DNA of 6,739 nucleotides. It comes from a virus (Duplodnaviria; Heunggongvirae; Uroviricota; Caudoviricetes). The notes under the pieces were generated by a model. It had not been told where the DNA came from. It did no database searches and saw nothing but the letters and a program-made list of their open reading frames with translations. Location: IMG/VR virus record IMGVR_UViG_2711768034_000001, positions 1-6,739 of that record; one strand, given 5' to 3'. This document shows, piece by piece, positions 1 to 6,739 of this stretch (its first letter is position 1; every line of letters starts with the position of its first letter). The translations under genes were made by a program, and so were the position numbers.

Positions 1-170
1 CGCTTCCGCATGTCAGCGATGGTGGCGTTCGCCTTCTCCAGTTCACTGGCCTTGTTATCGCGCTGCTCTTTGTAGGCGATTGCGTTATCACGGTAATGAT
101 TAACAGCCCATGACAGGCAAACGATGATGCAGATAACCAGAGCGGAGATAATCGCGGTTACTCTGCTCAT
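1..170 (-). CDS. Rz: Rz spanin (inner-membrane subunit), N-terminal part only; the gene continues beyond position 1
   Basis: Reverse complement of 1..170 translates [57 protein letters not shown] with no stop, which I recognise as the lambda Rz N-terminus. Its ATG (168..170) overlaps the R stop (167..169) as ATGA. It sits directly downstream of R as in lambda. Confidence 0.85.
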
Positions 171-643
171 ACCTCAATCTCTCTGACCGTTCCGCCAACT
201 TCTTTGAATTTTGCAATCAGGCTGTCTGCCTTATGCTCAAACTGGCCATAGCCTGCCCCGGGCAATGACGCCCAGATATTGCTGCAACGGTCGATTGCCT
301 GACGAATATCACCGCGGTCAATCATCGGTAAAGCGCCACGCTCTTTAATCTGTTGCAGTGCCACAGCGTCCTGGCTTTTCGGAGAGAAGTCTTTCAGGCC
401 AAGCTGCTTGCGGTAGGCATCCCACCAACGGGAAAGAAGCTGGTAACGTCCGGCGGCTGTTGATTTGAGTTTTGGGTTTAGCGTGACAAGTTTGCGAGGG
501 TGATCGGAGTAATCAGTGAATAGCTCTCCGCCAACAATGACGTCATAACCATGATTTCTGGTTTTCTGCCGTCCGTTATCAGTTCCCTCTGACCACGCCA
601 GCATATCGAGGAACGCCTTACGTTGATTATTGATTTCCACCAT
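167..643 (-). CDS. R: Endolysin R (lambda-type lytic transglycosylase)
   Basis: The 158-aa ORF is near-identical to my recollection of lambda R ([24 protein letters not shown]...), including the catalytic-Glu WSEGTD context. ATG at 641..643. It overlaps the 3' end of S by 17 nt, as in lambda. Confidence 0.95.
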
Positions 644-950
644 CTTCTACTCCGGCTTTTTTAGCAGCGAAGCGTTTGATAAGCGAACCAATCGAGTCAG
701 TACCGATGTAGCCGATGAACACGCTCGTTATATAAGCGAGATTGCTACTTAGTCCGGCGAAGTCGAGAAGGTCACGAATGAACCAGGCGATAATGGCGCA
801 CATCGTTGCGTCGATTACTGTTTTTGTAAACGCACCGCCATTATATCTGCCGCGAAGGTACGCCATTGCAAACGCAAGGATTGCCCCGATGCCTTGTTCC
901 TTTGCCGCGAGAATGGCGGCTAACAGGTCATGTTTTTCTGGCATCTTCAT
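627..950 (-). CDS. S: Holin/antiholin S with dual-start motif (S107 from Met1, S105 from Met3)
   Basis: The 107-aa ORF begins [20 protein letters not shown], the lambda S dual-start motif, and is hydrophobic with TM segments. ATG at 948..950 and second ATG at 942..944. The upstream minus-strand sequence CCCCTTATTGGGGCTAAGACATGAAGATG matches the lambda S leader. Confidence 0.95.
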
Positions 951-970
951 GTCTTAGCCCCAATAAGGGG
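951..970 (-). promoter_or_regulatory. S translation-initiation leader with sdi-type stem-loop (CCCC-TTATT-GGGG) just upstream of the dual start
   Basis: Plus 958..970 is ccccaataagggg, a 4-bp GC stem with 5-nt loop, positioned as the lambda sdi hairpin that sets the S107/S105 ratio. The role is inferred from established lambda biology. Confidence 0.5.
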
Positions 971-1070
971 ATTTGCTCTATTTATTTAGGAATAAGGTCG
1001 ATTACTGATAGAACAAATCCAGGCTACTGTGTTTAGTAATCAGATTTGTTCGTGACCGATATGCACGGGC

Positions 1071-1105
1071 AAAACGGCAGGAGGCTGTTAGCGCGACCTC
1101 CTGCC
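1071..1105 (-). terminator. Candidate intrinsic terminator (tR'-like) between the tRNA genes and S
   Basis: Perfect 9-bp GC-rich inverted repeat ggcaggagg (1076..1084) and cctcctgcc (1097..1105) with a 12-nt loop. On the minus strand the stem is followed by GTTTTG (plus 1071..1075 aaaac). The U-tract is short, so confidence is modest. Confidence 0.35.
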
Positions 1106-1192
1106 ACCCGCTTTCACGAAGATCATGTGTAGAAGGCCGCAGCGTAACTATCACTGATGAATTCAGGATAGCCAGTGGCTACGGCTCAGTTA

Positions 1193-1268
1193 TGGTGCTG
1201 TTTAACGGACTTGAACCGCTACCCATTCGCTTACAAGGCGACCGCTCTACCATTGGAGCTAAAACAGC
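1193..1268 (-). tRNA. tRNA, anticodon read as UGU (Thr-like), 76 nt with encoded CCA
   Basis: Minus-strand sequence GCTGTTTTAGCTCCAATGGTAGAGCGGTCGCCTTGTAAGCGAATGGGTAGCGGTTCAAGTCCGTTAAACAGCACCA folds as a cloverleaf: 7-bp acceptor GCTGTTT/AAACAGC, D-arm GCTC-CAATGGTA-GAGC, anticodon loop CTTGTAA, T-arm AGCGG-TTCAAGT-CCGTT, discriminator A. One G-A mismatch at the top of the anticodon stem. Confidence 0.7.
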
Positions 1269-1273
1269 ATGTT

Positions 1274-1348
1274 TGGCGGGACAGCGTGGACTCGAACCAC
1301 GATAAGAAGGTTAACAGCCTTCCGTAATGACCTTTATACGACTGACCC
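1274..1348 (-). tRNA. tRNA, anticodon read as GUU (Asn-like), 75 nt with encoded CCA
   Basis: Minus-strand sequence GGGTCAGTCGTATAAAGGTCATTACGGAAGGCTGTTAACCTTCTTATCGTGGTTCGAGTCCACGCTGTCCCGCCA. Perfect anticodon stem GAAGG/CCTTC with loop CTGTTAA, T-arm CGTGG-TTCGAGT-CCACG, discriminator G. The acceptor stem has one T:T mismatch at pair 4-69 and the D-stem is only 3 bp, so it may be a degenerate or pseudo-tRNA. Confidence 0.55.
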
Positions 1349-1411
1349 AAATAAAAAAAGCCACCGTTGCAACTTAAGAGTCACTAATGGCAGCTTACCT
1401 TCTAATTATGG

Positions 1412-1930
1412 CTAAATGGATAATTGCATGTCAAGGCTTTTAACAGCAACATGCTTAACTTTCTCAACACGTTTACGCATTTTAAAAGCATTTTGCATTG
1501 GCTGGTATAAAACAAATAATGACGCTTTCAGGATGTCGTCAATTTCGTTTCTACAGGTTGCCAGTGAAGGTTTTCTCCATCCCTCGCCACCACGTCCACA
1601 CATCTTGCGTGGCTTTGCAGTCGCGTGATAGTAGGATGCAATTGCTCGCTTAGATGAACCATGAGCGTAGTAGCTTAGGAGGATGCCAAAGGCTTTCTTG
1701 TCAATGTACATGACGGAATCGACGACCTGAGAAATCAACATTCCATCATCATCATTACACATTGGCCTTGTCATAACTCTTCCCGGCTCTACGCTCTCCA
1801 TGAACTTCGCTATTACGCTGCTCATGCGCTTTTCCAGACGACCTGAATAAACCCATGCGCCCCACAGTTCAAGCCAGCCATTCAGCCACTCATGCTGTTC
1901 TTTGGTGAGGTTTAGTTCTCTTATGCCCAC
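1412..1930 (-). CDS. Q: Late-gene antiterminator Q, non-lambda type (82/933W-like Phage_antitermQ family)
   Basis: The 172-aa ORF lies between ninI and the lysis genes. It has the W-x-x-W-G-A-W motif (LELWGAWV) and the Cys/Asp-rich [10 protein letters not shown] segment, which parallel the ERWGAWA and RPQCCDDDAM motifs I recall from 933W-type Q. It is not lambda Q. The start is GTG at 1928..1930, with no in-frame ATG nearby, and overlaps the ninI stop by 10 nt. Confidence 0.7.
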
Positions 1931-2592
1931 GCGCCTTCTCCCTGTACCTGAATCAATGTGAGGTTTCCGCAGAACACTGCGCCGGTATCGATATACATCT
2001 GGTTGGCAAATTTGAGTGGTTTCACTGCTGGCGTATGACCAAAGATGAACGTGTCCGCGCCTTTGATTTCTTTCACGATCCCGTCTTGTGAGTTGCCGAT
2101 TCGTTCGCGGTTCCAGATTACCTGCTGATGATCAACTGGCTTTCCAAACTCGTATTCATCACAAGGATAATCGGCGTGGCAAATGACATATTTTTTACCT
2201 TTGCTCACCAGTTCGATAATTAACGGAAGTTCATCTGCTTTATGGGCAAGAGCTTTAGCCAGAATCTCTTTGTCGTAATCGAGATTGAAGAACCAGCCAC
2301 CGCCATTAAGCAGCCAGTGATTGACGTTTCCGCGCTCTGATAAGCCATCAATCATCATTTGCTCATGGTTTCCACGTACAGCTCTGAACCAGGGGAATGT
2401 GATTAATTCCAGGCATTCGACGTTCTCTATACCGCGATCAACCAAATCGCCAACCGAGATAAGCAGGTCTTTTTTGGTGTCGAATCCAATTGTCTCCAGT
2501 TTTTTCATCAGGTTCGTGTAGCATCCGTGCAGATCGCCAACTACCCAAATATTTCGGTATTTGCTGCCATCAATTCTTTCGTAGATATTCAT
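1921..2592 (-). CDS. ninI: NinI Ser/Thr protein phosphatase (lambda PPase homolog)
   Basis: The 223-aa ORF has the metallophosphatase motifs GDLHG, GDLVDRG and GNHE, and is near-identical to lambda NinI as I recall it (…[26 protein letters not shown]…). ATG at 2590..2592 overlaps the ninG stop as ATGA. Confidence 0.95.
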
Positions 2593-3203
2593 GCAGCCTC
2601 ACTTCTGCTGTTTCGCAGTTTTTTAAGTTTCTGTTGATACTCCGCCTTGATGGTCCTGCACTCTTCGACAGTCCAGCGATGGCGGTTATGGTTTGATTCG
2701 ATTTCGTCTACTGTTTCCTGCCCGATGCGGTTAATCAGTTCGACGCGATACGGAACGAGATTTCCGCTTTTGTGCTGGTTGCACACCACGCATTGCTTGT
2801 GAATATTGCGTTCATCAAATCGGAGTTGAGGTGCCGCAGCAGTTGTCCGGTAATGCCCGGCATCCCACTGAGCAGACGTGAGCGTCCCGCACGAGATACA
2901 TGGTAAGTCGCGGTCTCTTTCTCTGATGAAGGCGTTTACGGCTTGTTGGGCTTGTTTAATCCAGTAACTGCGGGGCTTTAAGGCGAGTTTTCGAATCTTA
3001 AGTTTATCTTTCTGTTTCTGCTCCTCTCGTCGCCGTTTCTTCTCTGCTGCTTTTTCCGCTTTTTCGCGTTCTTTACTTCGTCGTTCGAGTGCTATCTTGG
3101 TTCCACACTCTGGAGAGCACCACCACTGATTAGCGAATGCAGGGTGAAACCATTCCCGACATTCATCGTTTTTACATCGTCTTCGCGCTGGTTTAGCCAT
3201 CAT
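2589..3203 (-). CDS. ninG: NinG (Rap) recombination-associated structure-specific endonuclease
   Basis: The 204-aa [39 protein letters not shown]... matches lambda NinG/Rap from memory. It is Cys-rich with a basic KR-rich linker. Tandem ATGs at 3201..3203 and 3198..3200 leave the start ambiguous by one codon. Confidence 0.9.
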
Positions 3204-3363
3204 CTTCTTCCTCGTGCATCGAGCTATTCGAATCGCTCATCAGCTCTGCACAGCAGTGCTCACACACGTGAACTTCCAGCACATGCAGCTTCTGACCGCA
3301 GTTAGCGCACGTTAAAGCCCGCTCGACGCTTTCTTGTTCGTAACTTCGATTTGGGTCAATCAC
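3193..3363 (-). CDS. ninF: NinF (small Cys-rich zinc-ribbon-like protein)
   Basis: The C-terminal 56 aa ([43 protein letters not shown]...EEEDDG) match lambda NinF. I place the start at GTG 3361..3363, preceded by GAGGAA and overlapping the ninE stop as GTGA, mirroring the lambda ATGA junction. The ORF track's longer 3193..3405 version also starts with GTG and is an alternative. Confidence 0.7.
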
Positions 3364-3542
3364 CTTGTATTCCTCGCACGATGTCTTAGCCACCGGATAT
3401 CCCACAGGTGAGCCGTGTAGTTGAAGGTTTTTACGTCAGATTCTTTTGGGATTGGCTTGCGTTTATTTCTGGAGCGTTTCGTTGGAAGGTATTTGCAGTT
3501 TTCGCAGATTATGTCGGTGATACTTCGTCGCTGTCGCCTCAT
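3360..3542 (-). CDS. ninE: NinE
   Basis: The internal Met of the 90-aa track ORF yields the 60-aa [60 protein letters not shown], matching lambda NinE. ATG at 3540..3542 overlaps the methyltransferase stop as ATGA. The track's N-terminal extension overlaps the upstream gene and is unlikely to be translated. Confidence 0.85.
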
Positions 3543-4093
3543 GCCGCCCTCCTGACGCCCTGCCCGATCGCCATCAATGCCGCTTTGGATACGGTAGTAA
3601 ACATCCGTCGAGGACTGATGAACGGTCGCCAAATCAGCAGCATGGAACCTTTGCTGTTTCCCTTCTTCTCCAGCCCTGTCGATGGTTCGATAAAATTAAT
3701 CCGTCCATCAGTGATAATACGAACTTCGTCGACACTCTCCAGAGCCTTGCTGAACCATCCGACTGACATATCCTCTGGCACAAGCATAACTACCGTCTGT
3801 CGCTGTTGTATGCACTGCTCAGCGGCTTTTTCCACCCACGGCCTGATATTGCTGTACGGTAGGTTATTCCAGATTGCACCGTGGCTTATCCACTCAGAAT
3901 TGAGCGCGTCGTCAGCCTCAGTTAGCCAGTGAGCGCACAGAGCATTTTTGTCGCTCGCTGCCGAATCCAGCCAGAATCCAAACTCAATATCCAGTGCATC
4001 AAAAAGCCAAAGCGGCGTTTGCCAGCAGTCCTTGTCGTGTGCTGGCGTATTTGATTTGATAGTCATGCAGCCTTCCCTTTTCGTTGTGACCAT
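3539..4093 (-). CDS. Phage Dam-family DNA N6-adenine methyltransferase (orphan; occupies the lambda ninC/ninD slot)
   Basis: The 184-aa ORF carries the N-terminal [26 protein letters not shown] signature typical of phage Dam-type methyltransferases (Pfam Dam, PF05869) and an NLPY motif resembling the catalytic (D/N)PPY motif. An alternative ATG at 4064..4066 (Met10) overlaps the ninB stop as ATGA and may be the true start, giving 175 aa. Confidence 0.75.
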
Positions 4094-4509
4094 TCATACT
4101 CTCGCCGGGAGTCATCACTCCACCGCACGTTGCGCTCTGAGCCGAACCAGAACATGATTTCGATAAGCTCAGTCATGCTGGCCTTTCGCATTTTGCTGGT
4201 ACGCACGCCAAGCATAACAACGCCACCGTCGATACCAGGCGCACTTCGTTGCTCCAGTTTTTTGGTCTTAAGCCACAGGGCAGTGAACAGATCTTTCCAG
4301 TCCTCCGGCGCAAGTCTCTCTCCATGCCAGAGCACCTGACGCGATACGTCCTGCAATAACGCCCACATAAGGCGGTTTTGAGGATTGCTCCGCTTTGGTT
4401 CTTTAATGTGGACTTCGTGAGGTGACTTGTCGTCGATCGGAAGTGAGAGTATTGCGTCTATGGCGTTGTTTCTGATTGCTTCGTTGCGAAGCATGTATAT
4501 TTGCTTCAT
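4063..4509 (-). CDS. ninB: NinB (Orf-family recombination mediator)
   Basis: Homologous to lambda NinB from memory (…NPQNRLMWALLQDVSRQVLWHGERL…RWSDD…EW…RKGKAA against lambda …DQNRKLWACLGDVSRQVEWHGRWL…KWSDE…EW…RWGDRAA). I place the start at ATG 4507..4509, preceded by GAGGT and aligning with the lambda N-terminus. The track start at 4527 is a TTG that overlaps the upstream ORF. Confidence 0.85.
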   Translation of the reverse strand: MKQIYMLRNEAIRNNAIDAILSLPIDDKSPHEVHIKEPKRSNPQNRLMWALLQDVSRQVLWHGERLAPEDWKDLFTALWLKTKKLEQRSAPGIDGGVVMLGVRTSKMRKASMTELIEIMFWFGSERNVRWSDDSRREYEWSQRKGKAA

Positions 4510-4516
4510 CGTTACC

Positions 4517-4723
4517 TCAACTAACAAAACGCCACGCCATTTTTGCTACAGCGACAGGCATAACACCGATAATCACCCAGACAAATGCAGCGCCAAACAA
4601 CGTATACCATGGGTCTTTACCGTCATTCACAAGACGAATGTAGCTATGCAGAACAATAAAAAACGTCAGAAGAATCCATCCAACGCCAACGCATTTGAGT
4701 GCGACGAGCATAAACTCAGCCAC
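4517..4723 (-). CDS. Small hypothetical membrane protein (68 aa, two predicted TM helices), function unknown
   Basis: Two hydrophobic stretches (GVGWILLTFFIVLHSYI and LFGAAFVWVIIGVMPVAVA) separated by a short polar loop RLVNDGKDP. GTG start at 4721..4723 is preceded by a strong SD, GGGGGAGAG; an in-frame ATG lies at 4709..4711. It is co-oriented and tightly packed with the operon. No homolog recognised. Confidence 0.55.
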   Translation of the reverse strand: MAEFMLVALKCVGVGWILLTFFIVLHSYIRLVNDGKDPWYTLFGAAFVWVIIGVMPVAVAKMAWRFVS

Positions 4724-4738
4724 GATTTACTCTCCCCC

Positions 4739-4770
4739 AAATAAAAAGGCCTGCGATTACCAGCAGGCCT
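4739..4770 (-). terminator. Intrinsic terminator (tR2-like) between the helicase gene and the nin region
   Basis: 8-bp inverted repeat aggcctgc (4747..4754) and gcaggcct (4763..4770) with an 8-nt loop. On the minus strand the stem is followed directly by TTTTTATTT (plus 4739..4746). It lies 29 nt downstream of the helicase stop and just upstream of the membrane ORF SD. Confidence 0.55.
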
Positions 4771-4798
4771 GTTATTAGCTCAGTGATGTAGATGGTCA

Positions 4799-6235
4799 TC
4801 AGAATCCTCCTTTCTTCTTGGACTGCGGTTCCTCGCGTTCACGGCGGCGCATTTCAGCAGACTGTTGGTCTGTGTCATAAATAGCGCCATTTGCCTGAAT
4901 GCAATACACCGTGCCGGTATTGCCATGACGATTGAGGCGAAGGATTAGTTCGGTTTCACCAGGAGGAACGCTGTCATCAAAAGCACCTTCCCGATGGATC
5001 CCAACCCAATAATCGCAATCCTGTTCAATCTGCCCTGTATCTCGTGAGTCACTTGGTAATGGGCGTTTATTGGTTCGGCTTTCCAGTGCGCGGTTAAGCT
5101 GCGTCAGAAGCACAACAACGCAATCAAGCTCTTTGGCAAGGTTCTTCAGTCCTTTGGTGATCATGCCGTAAGCAAGGTCGTTGCGATCGGCCTTCTCAGC
5201 GGTCATTAGTGTCAGGTAATCGACCAGAATCATGCCAACACATCCTTTTTCTCGCTTGATTCGACGGCTTTCGCTGACGATTTGAGCCAGAGATAATCCC
5301 GGCGTGTCGTCGATGTAAAGCATGTCGATTTCACTCAAGCGATTAGCTGTTTCGATCGCCCTGTTGAAGTCACCATCGTAATCACCCTGATAGCCGTCAT
5401 CAGCGTCATTTGTCGCCGGAAGGTAAAAAATATTCGGGTTAACACCTGACTTCTGTCCTACCAGTTTTTCCAGTATCTGGTCACCGGGCATTTCAAGGCT
5501 GAACATCAGAGCGGGCTTTTTCTCATGCACTGCGCAGTTGATTGCCATCTGGCTGTATAGCGTCGTTTTCCCCATCTTAGGGCGAGCGCCAATGACAAAC
5601 AGAGAGCCTTTCACCAGACCTTTCGGTGACAGCATCCTGTCCAGCGATGGGATCCCTGTGCTCATTCCTCGTTGTTCGCCTGACGGGTCAAATCGCTTCT
5701 CAAGGTCGCTAACCCAGTCTTCCATGACCTCACCAAATGAGCGAAGGCCGCGACGCGATCCGGTGTTTGCATGGTCTGTCAGTTGCGTGAAAATCGCCTG
5801 AATAGCTTCGTACTTCTGCGTTGCAGTCATTCCGTTGCGGGAATAGAGCAATTCCGTAGCTTCAGTCATGCGGTTGATGGCGTAGCGTTCCATTGCGGTT
5901 TCACGAACCTGCATTGCATAGGCAACGATGTTTGCTGCGCTTGGCGTGTTCTTTGCGATCTCAGCGATATAAGCAAAACCGCCAACAGACGCCGTTAACG
6001 ATTTGCGCTCCAGTTCATCGAAAAGCGTCAGGCCATCTACTGGCTTTTGCTCCCGGTGCATTCTGGTTATTTCTTCGAAAAGGATTTTGTGTGGTCGGCT
6101 GTAAAATGAATCAGGCTTCAGCATCGCCAGAACTTTCCGGACGCGCTCACTGCTGTCATCATCCAGAAGCAATCCACCAATCACCGCCTGCTCTGCCTCG
6201 ATGCTATTGGGCGGCGCATAAAAATTATCGGTCAT
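4799..6235 (-). CDS. DnaB-family replicative DNA helicase (P22 gene 12-like), replacing lambda P
   Basis: N-terminal DnaB-like segment IEAEQAVIGGLLLD, Walker A GARPKMGKTT, Walker B-like GMILVDYLTLM. I place the start at ATG 6233..6235, 7 nt after the O-like stop and preceded by GAGGGTGA. The track's GTG at 6250 would overlap the upstream gene by 26 nt. Confidence 0.85.
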   Translation of the reverse strand: MTDNFYAPPNSIEAEQAVIGGLLLDDDSSERVRKVLAMLKPDSFYSRPHKILFEEITRMHREQKPVDGLTLFDELERKSLTASVGGFAYIAEIAKNTPSAANIVAYAMQVRETAMERYAINRMTEATELLYSRNGMTATQKYEAIQAIFTQLTDHANTGSRRGLRSFGEVMEDWVSDLEKRFDPSGEQRGMSTGIPSLDRMLSPKGLVKGSLFVIGARPKMGKTTLYSQMAINCAVHEKKPALMFSLEMPGDQILEKLVGQKSGVNPNIFYLPATNDADDGYQGDYDGDFNRAIETANRLSEIDMLYIDDTPGLSLAQIVSESRRIKREKGCVGMILVDYLTLMTAEKADRNDLAYGMITKGLKNLAKELDCVVVLLTQLNRALESRTNKRPLPSDSRDTGQIEQDCDYWVGIHREGAFDDSVPPGETELILRLNRHGNTGTVYCIQANGAIYDTDQQSAEMRRREREEPQSKKKGGF

Positions 6236-6739
6236 CGTGTTCACCCTCACGAACTTTCAGGTAGGTATTATCGTTAAGCAGGAAATCAAATCCCTTTTTG
6301 TGCCAGACGGTTCCGCGTTGATGGTTTGGACGCTCTTCGAACATCCATCGGCAATTTTCGCCTACGTAGCTCAAATAATTTCTCCAGTCCTGCATCGTGA
6401 ACCCATGCCCGTCAAGCTGGCGGGTTATCACTCCGGCTTTGCGCCAGAACGTTCGGATCTGGTTTTTACGCTTGTCATTCAGTGCGCGGATTCTTGGCGC
6501 TTCAGGAAGGATTTCGTGGTAAGCATCGACAACATCCTGACAGCTGACGGGAGGTTTTTTCTTGTCAGACTTTTTGTCTGCTGTGGCACTCTCTAATACG
6601 TCAGTATTAGAGATAATATTATTATATTCTTTATCTGTGGTAATTTGCTGGTAATCTGCTGGTACAGTATTTCTTACAGGCATTGGTATTGCTGACTTTG
6701 ATGTGGTAATTTGCTGGTAATCTGCTGGTACAAAATTTG
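6225..6739 (-). CDS. Replication initiator, O-like (C-terminal portion; 5' end beyond the window), with origin iterons inside the coding sequence
   Basis: The frame of the 6225..6683 ORF stays open upstream to the window edge (…NFVPADYQQITTSKSAIPMPVRNTVPADYQQITTDKEY…). The DNA direct repeats encode a repeated VPADYQQITT peptide, as in lambda O where the ori iterons encode the interdomain linker. Position immediately upstream of the helicase fits. No sequence homology to lambda O was recognised, so the call rests on position and architecture. Confidence 0.55.
   Translation of the reverse strand, partial: NFVPADYQQITTSKSAIPMPVRNTVPADYQQITTDKEYNNIISNTDVLESATADKKSDKKKPPVSCQDVVDAYHEILPEAPRIRALNDKRKNQIRTFWRKAGVITRQLDGHGFTMQDWRNYLSYVGENCRWMFEERPNHQRGTVWHKKGFDFLLNDNTYLKVREGEHDDR
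6636..6732. repeat. Iteron-like direct repeats: two perfect 31-bp copies, each built of ~11-bp sub-repeats, flanking an AT-rich tract; candidate phage replication origin
   Basis: tgtggtaatttgctggtaatctgctggtaca occurs at 6636..6666 and again at 6702..6732. Inside each copy, tgctggtaat(c/t) recurs with ~11-bp spacing, and a degenerate copy ttggtattgctg lies between them. An AT-rich tract (tattagagataatattattatattctttatc, about 6605..6635) is adjacent. The array may continue past 6739. Confidence 0.6.

Follow-up and report, generated by a model that had tools for sequence, protein, structure and literature searches.

ORF68 and the NinA-tR2 junction

We analyzed a stretch of 6,739 nucleotides from a virus of the Caudoviricetes (positions 1 to 6,739 of IMG/VR record IMGVR_UViG_2711768034_000001), which is called the window here and whose coordinates are used throughout. 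Judging from its list of open reading frames (ORFs) and from the Pfam and PHROGs matches, the minus strand of the window corresponds to the early-right, nin and lysis region of a lambdoid phage. The subject of the analysis is ORF68, a 68-codon ORF for a hydrophobic protein that lies between the terminator tR2 and ninB (Table 1). The initial annotation, which was made from the sequence alone, had described it as a membrane protein gene at the position of lambda ren.

Immediately upstream of ORF68, a terminator scan and RNA folding identified a hairpin with an 8-bp stem containing six G-C pairs, followed by TTTTATTT. The 77-nt segment around this hairpin is 98.6–100% identical to the segments of lambda, 434 and H-19B, and it is present in 421 phage records, including those of lambda, 434 and P22. 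The same segment is annotated as tR2 in the records of HK620 and Lahn2 and as a terminator in those of P22 and 434. The structure that had been called “tR2-like” is thus, by identity and by the annotation of these records, the actual lambdoid tR2. The Shine-Dalgarno sequence GGGGGAGAG stands 6 nt upstream of the GTG start codon, so that the description of a 68-codon ORF with a strong Shine-Dalgarno sequence directly after a terminator was accurate. At the other end, the junction sequence places the true ATG of ninB at 4509–4507, 7 nt past the ORF68 stop codon, and the GAGG ribosome-binding site of ninB overlaps that stop codon.

The terminator is spanned by NinA (lambda orf26), a hydrophobic ORF of 27 amino acids (MTIYITELITGLLVIAGLFIWGRVNRG) that matches phrog_5907 (E 1.3e-18). 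Its ATG overlaps the helicase stop codon (ATGA); at the other end, its TGA shares nucleotides with the ORF68 start codon (GTGGCTGA; ATGGTTAA in Salmonella). The ATGA that embeds the stop codon of the upstream gene in the NinA start was found at 11 of the 12 ORF68-bearing phage loci, the exception being HK022, and the NinA stop codon overlaps the start of whatever gene comes next. NinA is present in all 421 junction-bearing records, with or without ORF68. The ninA annotated in HK620, SPN9CC, Lahn2 and P22 is this 27-codon ORF, which is different from ORF68; the original HK620 record left ORF68, between ninA and ninB, without annotation. NinA resembles ORF68 in being a small hydrophobic peptide, and the two adjacent genes overlap translationally, but NinA has one helix whereas ORF68 has two. 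In codons 2–9 of NinA, the variable sites among lambda, P22, HK620, SPN9CC and Kapi1 comprise five synonymous changes and one conservative I-to-V change. By these comparisons NinA looks translated. Its translation may bring ribosomes across the terminator, and termination at tR2 could be modulated in this way too.

In some Salmonella prophages the two genes are joined. At two such loci (L021 and L022, 2501–2785), NinA is brought into the reading frame of ORF68 by a 2-nt insertion downstream of the T-run (TTTGTGGTGGAGAGG). In ST64T-type prophages, the in-frame NinA-ORF68 fusion forms a three-helix ORF of 93–94 amino acids, which was found in dozens of contigs, and the fusion ORFs (proteins P0012, P0013, P0018 and P0084) retain the internal Shine-Dalgarno sequence and ATG. 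The “orf-90” of ST64T is probably the same fusion. A complex of NinA with ORF68 received no support from an AlphaFold2 model of the natural 94-amino-acid fusion, in which the predicted local distance difference test (pLDDT) score was 56–60 over NinA and the predicted template modeling score was 0.49.

Coding evidence, family and predicted structure

An alignment of 12 phage alleles with 53–100% amino-acid identity indicates that ORF68 is a genuine protein-coding gene and that the minus-strand frame is the coding one. The 68-codon frame is intact in 11 of the 12 alleles and the start site is common to them, the start codon being GTG, or ATG at the same site in Salmonella phage SPN9CC. The coding test was restricted to codons 2–46 and compared all six frames, with random placements of the substitutions as the null. 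In this part of the gene the synonymous sites are saturated, the proportion of synonymous differences (pS) being 0.72–0.77 and that of non-synonymous differences (pN) 0.41–0.45. The resulting pN/pS of ORF68, 0.53–0.63, was the lowest among the six frames and was reached by 0.1–0.8% of the random placements. The plus-strand frame over the same stretch gave 0.77–0.87, which is near random. A whole-gene ratio of non-synonymous to synonymous substitution rates (0.26–0.36) was superseded by the analysis of codons 2–46 and discarded, because the synonymous sites are saturated and because the 3′ third is identical between the allele types through recombination. There are two anciently diverged N-terminal allele types, with saturated synonymous sites, and a common, nucleotide-identical 3′ third that runs into the start of ninB; the window allele has the HK620/mEp213-type N-terminus. 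The recombination joint lies near codon 47, the identical part being approximately 4517–4585 in comparison with loci L003, L009, L007 and L006 (the last being Lahn2).

The initial annotation had left room for the plus-strand ORF being the translated one. This ORF is open in eight of the 12 alleles, but it contains stops in the other four, it has no family match in Pfam or PHROGs, and its pN/pS is near random, so it is not coding. These data also bear on the more general explanation that ORF68 is non-functional, either as the by-product of a conserved recombination linker or because the plus-strand ORF is the real gene. Several observations speak for this explanation and against a functional protein. 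Nucleotide-level conservation is seen in the 3′ third and in the tR2 segment upstream, and over codons 47–68 the window-type and HK630-type alleles differ by zero synonymous and one non-synonymous substitution; the synonymous sites being identical too, this identity between the E. coli allele types is therefore attributed to recombination and not to selection. The close pair formed by the window and SPN9CC has five synonymous and 15 non-synonymous differences (pN/pS 0.92), with no visible constraint. In the H-19B copy (AF034975), which is not annotated in its record, codon 15 is an in-frame TGA; the copy may be either a pseudogene or an old sequencing error. Finally, protein-level selection on the N-terminal two-thirds, as estimated from codons 2–46, appears real but moderate.

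On the other side, exactly 68 codons are kept while codons 2–46 saturate at synonymous sites, and both the start codon, including the exchange of GTG for ATG at the same site in Salmonella, and the Shine-Dalgarno sequence are conserved. Among the comparative arguments for a gene, the strongest is that length, start site and motif are kept down to 30–44% identity in other genera. We therefore regard a non-functional ORF as highly improbable and have great confidence that ORF68 is a real translated membrane protein. A weak terminator-like hairpin inside the gene (4662–4687, minus strand), with nine pairs, of which three are G-C, followed by TTTTTATTGTT, arises from the GVGWILLTFFIVL codons. The Salmonella allele has the same hairpin, which is probably due to chance.

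The initial annotation recognized no homolog, but many exist. Residues 1–68 match positions 1–68 of the 68-position profile of PHROG 1165, a family listed as “unknown function” (E 1.6e-39), and 15 of 15 diverse members, including those of Serratia, Erwinia and Pantoea, match only phrog_1165. The profile search that had been proposed at the outset thus yielded a family, although not a functional assignment. With tblastn, ORF68 was found in 107 phage records. The carriers include HK620, HK633, mEp213, HK022, HK630, HK75, mEpX1, Kapi1, Huey, Lahn2 (as “ORF69”), Stx2-converting phage 86 (as “orf70”), about 50 Stx2a phages and about 20 P22-like Salmonella phages; named members of PHROG 1165 include HK022 gp58, mEp213 gp58 and Kapi1_027. 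Both short-tailed phages (HK620, Kapi1, SPN9CC and the Stx phages) and long-tailed phages (HK022, mEp213, mEpX1 and HK630) carry the gene, which is therefore not tied to one virion type. Among 5426 complete E. coli genomes, at least 536 contain the window-type allele, under the PGAP name “hypothetical protein.” The few matches in plasmid records proved to be phage-sized entries or chromosomes with the wrong label. When 1.84 billion representative proteins were searched exhaustively with a profile, only 26 representatives were returned, and the distant relatives, of 60–66 amino acids, come from prophages of Erwinia, Serratia and Pantoea and from Izhakiella.

The members of PHROG 1165 share with the window protein the length of 68 amino acids, the position after NinA and tR2, and the residues K10, W16, W49, G53, P56, V57, K61 and W64, and show no essential difference from it. 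Taken together, these searches describe PHROG 1165 as a small, uncharacterized family of 60–68-amino-acid helical-hairpin membrane proteins that appears only in temperate phages and prophages of Enterobacterales. Although the family had been catalogued before this analysis, no function is assigned to it; all source names are hypothetical, phage or membrane protein. Full-text searches of the literature with sequence strings, the family, and the nin region combined with “membrane protein” found no paper on the ORF68 protein, and ninA is named there only as a nin gene of unknown function.

The two predicted transmembrane helices were borne out by three lines of evidence. Kyte-Doolittle hydropathy peaks at approximately residues 11–25 and 45–58, an AlphaFold2 model has helices at residues 2–32 and 37–66 with a mean pLDDT of 91.4, and the GenBank record of the Kapi1 homologue notes DeepTMHMM helices at 11–25 and 46–59. 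The window protein has the architecture of the family, i.e., 60–68 amino acids, two hydrophobic helices and a conserved W...G..PV...K..W motif in helix 2. The conserved residues (K10, W16, F21, V32, G35, D37, P38, W49, G53, P56, V57, K61 and W64, counting the start as 1) recur every three to four positions in each helix, and this spacing places them on one face of each helix and in the turn between. The helices contain few polar residues, and the C-terminal tail, AKMAWRFVS, has two basic residues. K10 and K61 (with R65) flank the helix ends, and the turn (R30, D34, K36 and D37) is net neutral; by the positive-inside rule, this charge distribution favors insertion in the inner membrane with both termini inside and a short periplasmic turn. 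We also considered a lipoprotein, but “ALKC” is not a lipobox and the cysteine is not conserved.

The slot downstream of tR2 and its expression

The surroundings of the junction were compared by aligning 17 loci. In lambda, 434 and P22, ren or gene 12 is followed by NinA and tR2 and then by ninB, which is served by the ribosome-binding site GGGGGAGAGGGAAG. In the window, HK620, HK630, Kapi1, mEpX1 and Huey, ORF68 sits between this post-tR2 ribosome-binding site and ninB, and in mEp213, HK022, H-19B and SPN9CC more small genes lie between ORF68 and ninB. The closest overall relative of the window, a prophage of E. coli O111:H- 11128 (L004 6080–6600), keeps NinA, tR2 and the ribosome-binding site, which here serves a 92-amino-acid acidic soluble protein in place of ORF68, followed by a DUF7301 protein, a Lar-family protein and NinB. 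The DUF7301 protein and the 92-amino-acid protein were considered as relatives of ORF68 and set aside as soluble and unrelated. In the tR2 of this prophage, 1 nt is deleted from the hairpin loop, and the prophage has HNH-endonuclease and NinH genes, both of which the window lacks. Because the same junction precedes ORF68, ninB or the 92-amino-acid gene in different phages, the site directly after the tR2 ribosome-binding site is a true swap position.

ORF68 is present in 107 phage records and the junction in 421, so the gene is optional and therefore accessory. The genes upstream of the junction also vary, and include helicases of several types, ren, an 89-amino-acid ORF and a 203-amino-acid ORF. 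In Erwinia and Serratia prophages, a homologue with approximately 30–35% identity stands directly after the replication genes and either adjoins the upstream gene or overlaps it, no terminator intervening, and in a podovirus-like, non-lambdoid contig a homologue lies inside a DNA-metabolism cluster. In Lahn2 (L006) and Stx2-converting phage 86 (L010), the start of ninB follows the ORF68 homologue but a stop codon occurs after seven codons (MKQISLQ*), and this remnant shows that recombination at the ORF68 junction deleted ninB or put other DNA in its place.

This comparison agrees with the earlier view that the slot varies between lambdoid phages, but “ren position” was imprecise, since ORF68 lies downstream of tR2 and ren upstream. 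Nor is ORF68 an alternative to ren, because both coexist in H-19B and mEpX1, where the ren genes stand upstream of the tR2-ORF68 module. Lambda Ren, which protects against Rex exclusion, is likewise the product of an accessory gene of the pR operon between the replication genes and ninB; however, it is a soluble protein of approximately 96 amino acids without sequence similarity to ORF68, and an identity with Ren was rejected because ORF68 has no match to the Ren family in Pfam or PHROGs.

The position of the gene could suggest that ORF68 is a membrane tether or organizer for the replication or recombination machinery of the phage. It is kept right after replication genes (DnaB-like helicase, lambda-P-like or DnaC-like genes), commonly precedes ninB, and in the podovirus-like contig stands among genes of DNA metabolism. 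However, lambda, P22 and 434 replicate normally without ORF68, the unrelated upstream genes leave no fixed partner gene, and the protein offers almost no soluble surface for cytoplasmic partners. We therefore give a tether little credence.

With respect to expression, no sigma-70-like promoter was found in 4000–6739 on either strand (1.0 and 2.5 expected by chance), although the scan covered only the sigma-70 consensus, which a weak or non-canonical promoter would escape; this limit counts against the timing proposed here. No terminator follows ORF68. The ribosome-binding site begins right after the T-run of tR2, and therefore transcripts that stop at tR2 do not contain it. ORF68 would then be produced solely when N lets transcription from pR pass tR2, within a translational chain running from the helicase through NinA and ORF68 to NinB. 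From this anatomy and the consensus scan, expression is probably delayed-early and N-dependent, after infection or induction, and not from the repressed prophage. We consider it likely that ORF68 is a delayed-early accessory gene.

These signals bear directly on the class of function that the initial annotation had proposed, i.e., a prophage-expressed factor for superinfection exclusion, abortive infection or toxicity, a “moron” of the lysogen. The optional presence of ORF68, the small size and membrane nature of its product and the variability of its slot would suit such a gene, two anciently diverged N-terminal allele types might fit a gene in conflict, and known exclusion proteins such as SieA of P22 are inner-membrane proteins. 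However, morons carry their own promoter and terminator, and ORF68 has no promoter-like site upstream or inside the gene (by the consensus scan, which is not definitive), no terminator, translation signals that overlap on both sides, a stop codon only 7 nt from the ninB ATG, and a place behind tR2 in the repressed pR operon. The lack of its own promoter and the position behind tR2 thus argue against a moron expressed in the lysogen. No PADLOC model matched ORF68. SieA of P22, of the inner-membrane exclusion proteins in this group of phages the one studied best, has 162–164 amino acids, three transmembrane segments and a cytoplasmic motif FnRYPnEAnnFNK, and is expressed from the prophage (10.1101/2023.08.15.553423). 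ORF68 shares with it only the character of a small phage inner-membrane protein; with 68 amino acids, two helices, no such motif and no sequence relationship, it is not a SieA-type exclusion protein. We consider a lysogen-expressed moron unlikely. The ribosome-binding site noted originally is good, but the expectation of prophage expression is probably wrong.

Table 1. Features of the window around ORF68 and in the neighboring early-right, nin and lysis genes
Feature	Position	Strand	Remarks
ORF68, 68-amino-acid two-helix hydrophobic hairpin, PHROG 1165	4517-4723	minus	GTG start 4723-4721; TGA stop 4519-4517
105-codon ORF	4427-4744	plus	Exact antisense shadow of ORF68, same codon register reversed
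tR2 intrinsic terminator	4739-4770	minus	Hairpin 4770-4747; T-run 4746-4739
Shine-Dalgarno sequence of ORF68	4738-4730	minus
NinA (lambda orf26)	4716-4799	minus	Spans tR2
O-like replication protein, C-terminal part	6225-6683	minus
DnaB-like replicative helicase (gene P / P22 gene 12 analogue)	4799-6250	minus	Upstream of the module; Pfam DnaB and DnaB_C; PHROG 19
ninB (recombination mediator)	4063-4509	minus	Downstream of the module; Pfam NinB at residues 7-137 of the 154-amino-acid ORF
Dam-type methyltransferase	3539-4093	minus
NinE, NinF, NinG	2589-3203	minus	After the Dam-type methyltransferase
Ser/Thr phosphatase	1921-2592	minus
Q antiterminator	1412-1930	minus
tRNA-Asn and tRNA-Thr	1193-1348	minus	Between Q antiterminator and holin
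Lambda-family holin	627-950	minus
Lysozyme	167-643	minus

Two observations concern the remainder of the window. The 90-codon ORF listed as NinE (3360–3632, minus strand) starts 30 codons before the Pfam NinE match (residues 31–87), and the real product is probably a protein of 59–60 amino acids from an internal Met. The tRNAs are tRNA-Thr(TGT) and tRNA-Asn(GTT), and no other Rfam family was found in the window. Stx phages carry tRNAs and toxin genes at this position between Q and the holin, and the window has no toxin genes there.

Possible functions of ORF68

As the best explanation overall, and with somewhat more confidence than doubt, we propose that ORF68 is an accessory gene of PHROG 1165, expressed in the delayed-early phase, whose product is a small inner-membrane modulator in lytic growth. 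ORF68 would bind an inner-membrane partner of the host or the phage, a step for which the support is weak, using the face of the second helix and the C-terminal tail (W49, G53, P56, V57, K61 and W64) together with the periplasmic turn (V32, G35, D37 and P38). In this role it might protect membrane-level processes of the infected cell during lytic growth, for example by blocking the DNA entry of competing phages or by countering an exclusion system that acts at the membrane. That the partner-binding modulator is specifically of such an exclusion or protection type can be put forward only tentatively.

The main competitor at the level of mechanism is a pore-forming or depolarizing protein, i.e., a holin- or antiholin-like factor in lysis timing or a small hydrophobic toxin. 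S68 of phage 21 and other class II holins have approximately 68 amino acids and two transmembrane helices, and the size and layout of ORF68 and its confident hairpin model are in line with this. In contrast to these holins, ORF68 has no match to a holin or Hok/Gef family in Pfam or PHROGs, and its short tail with two basic residues is not long and highly charged. It is located in the early operon, approximately 3.5 kb upstream of the lysis cassette (167–950), where the window encodes a holin of its own. Type I toxins (Hok/Gef and similar) were also rejected because of the lack of a Pfam match and of any Rfam family other than the two tRNAs. Since the gene is optional and present in phages of both tail types, and since the protein has a Trp/Gly/Pro face with few polar residues and a short tail that is not highly charged and is encoded at a distance from the lysis genes, we favor a partner-binding modulator over a pore-forming or toxin role, which we rate as quite improbable.

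A more specific version of the modulator is that ORF68 guards the membrane in the lytic phase. The protein, made in an N-dependent manner, would bind an inner-membrane component and either block the entry of rival genomes or neutralize an exclusion system, as a membrane counterpart of the neighboring Ren. Like SieA, T4 Imm and HK97 gp15 are small phage inner-membrane proteins that interfere with DNA entry, and T4 Imm is made early in lytic infection. The timing of T4 Imm would match that proposed for ORF68, which has no sequence relationship with either protein. The two N-terminal allele types, comprising the first helix and the periplasmic turn, would be specificity variants that intragenic recombination shuffles onto a constant C-terminal helix. 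We consider this version unlikely.

Several results weigh against the assignment of a modulator function to ORF68. No function is backed by experiments or by homology. In Pfam, nothing reached the threshold, the only match being the type IV secretion pilin family T4SS_pilin (PF18895; 14.9 bits, E 0.029, against a gathering threshold of 26.6). This match was seen in only two of 15 members and is therefore interpreted as a compositional likeness between hydrophobic hairpins, so that the pilin was rejected as an identity. NCBIfam gave only a match to an antiporter subunit (15 bits against a cut-off of 122), PADLOC-DB contained no defense model for ORF68 or NinA at E values up to 1, and the best hit of a profile search of the PDB had an E value of 0.13. 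A Foldseek search of the AlphaFold2 model (pLDDT 91) against the PDB and BFVD returned no match at E ≤ 0.001; a bare helical hairpin is uninformative in a fold search. In addition, the topology is a prediction based on the charge distribution only.

The results correct the annotation of this region: the real gene lies on the minus strand and differs from ren, and ninA is the 27-codon ORF next to it. ORF68 is common: many Stx-converting phages have it, as do approximately one-quarter of the lambdoid phage records with the tR2 junction and at least roughly a tenth of the complete E. coli genomes, and it is present in the well-studied model phages HK620 and HK022. At present it counts as another conserved hypothetical gene of the nin region; if ORF68 controls superinfection, exclusion or the lysis-lysogeny outcome at the membrane, it would be a new small-protein player in lambdoid biology, and one readily accessible to genetic tests.

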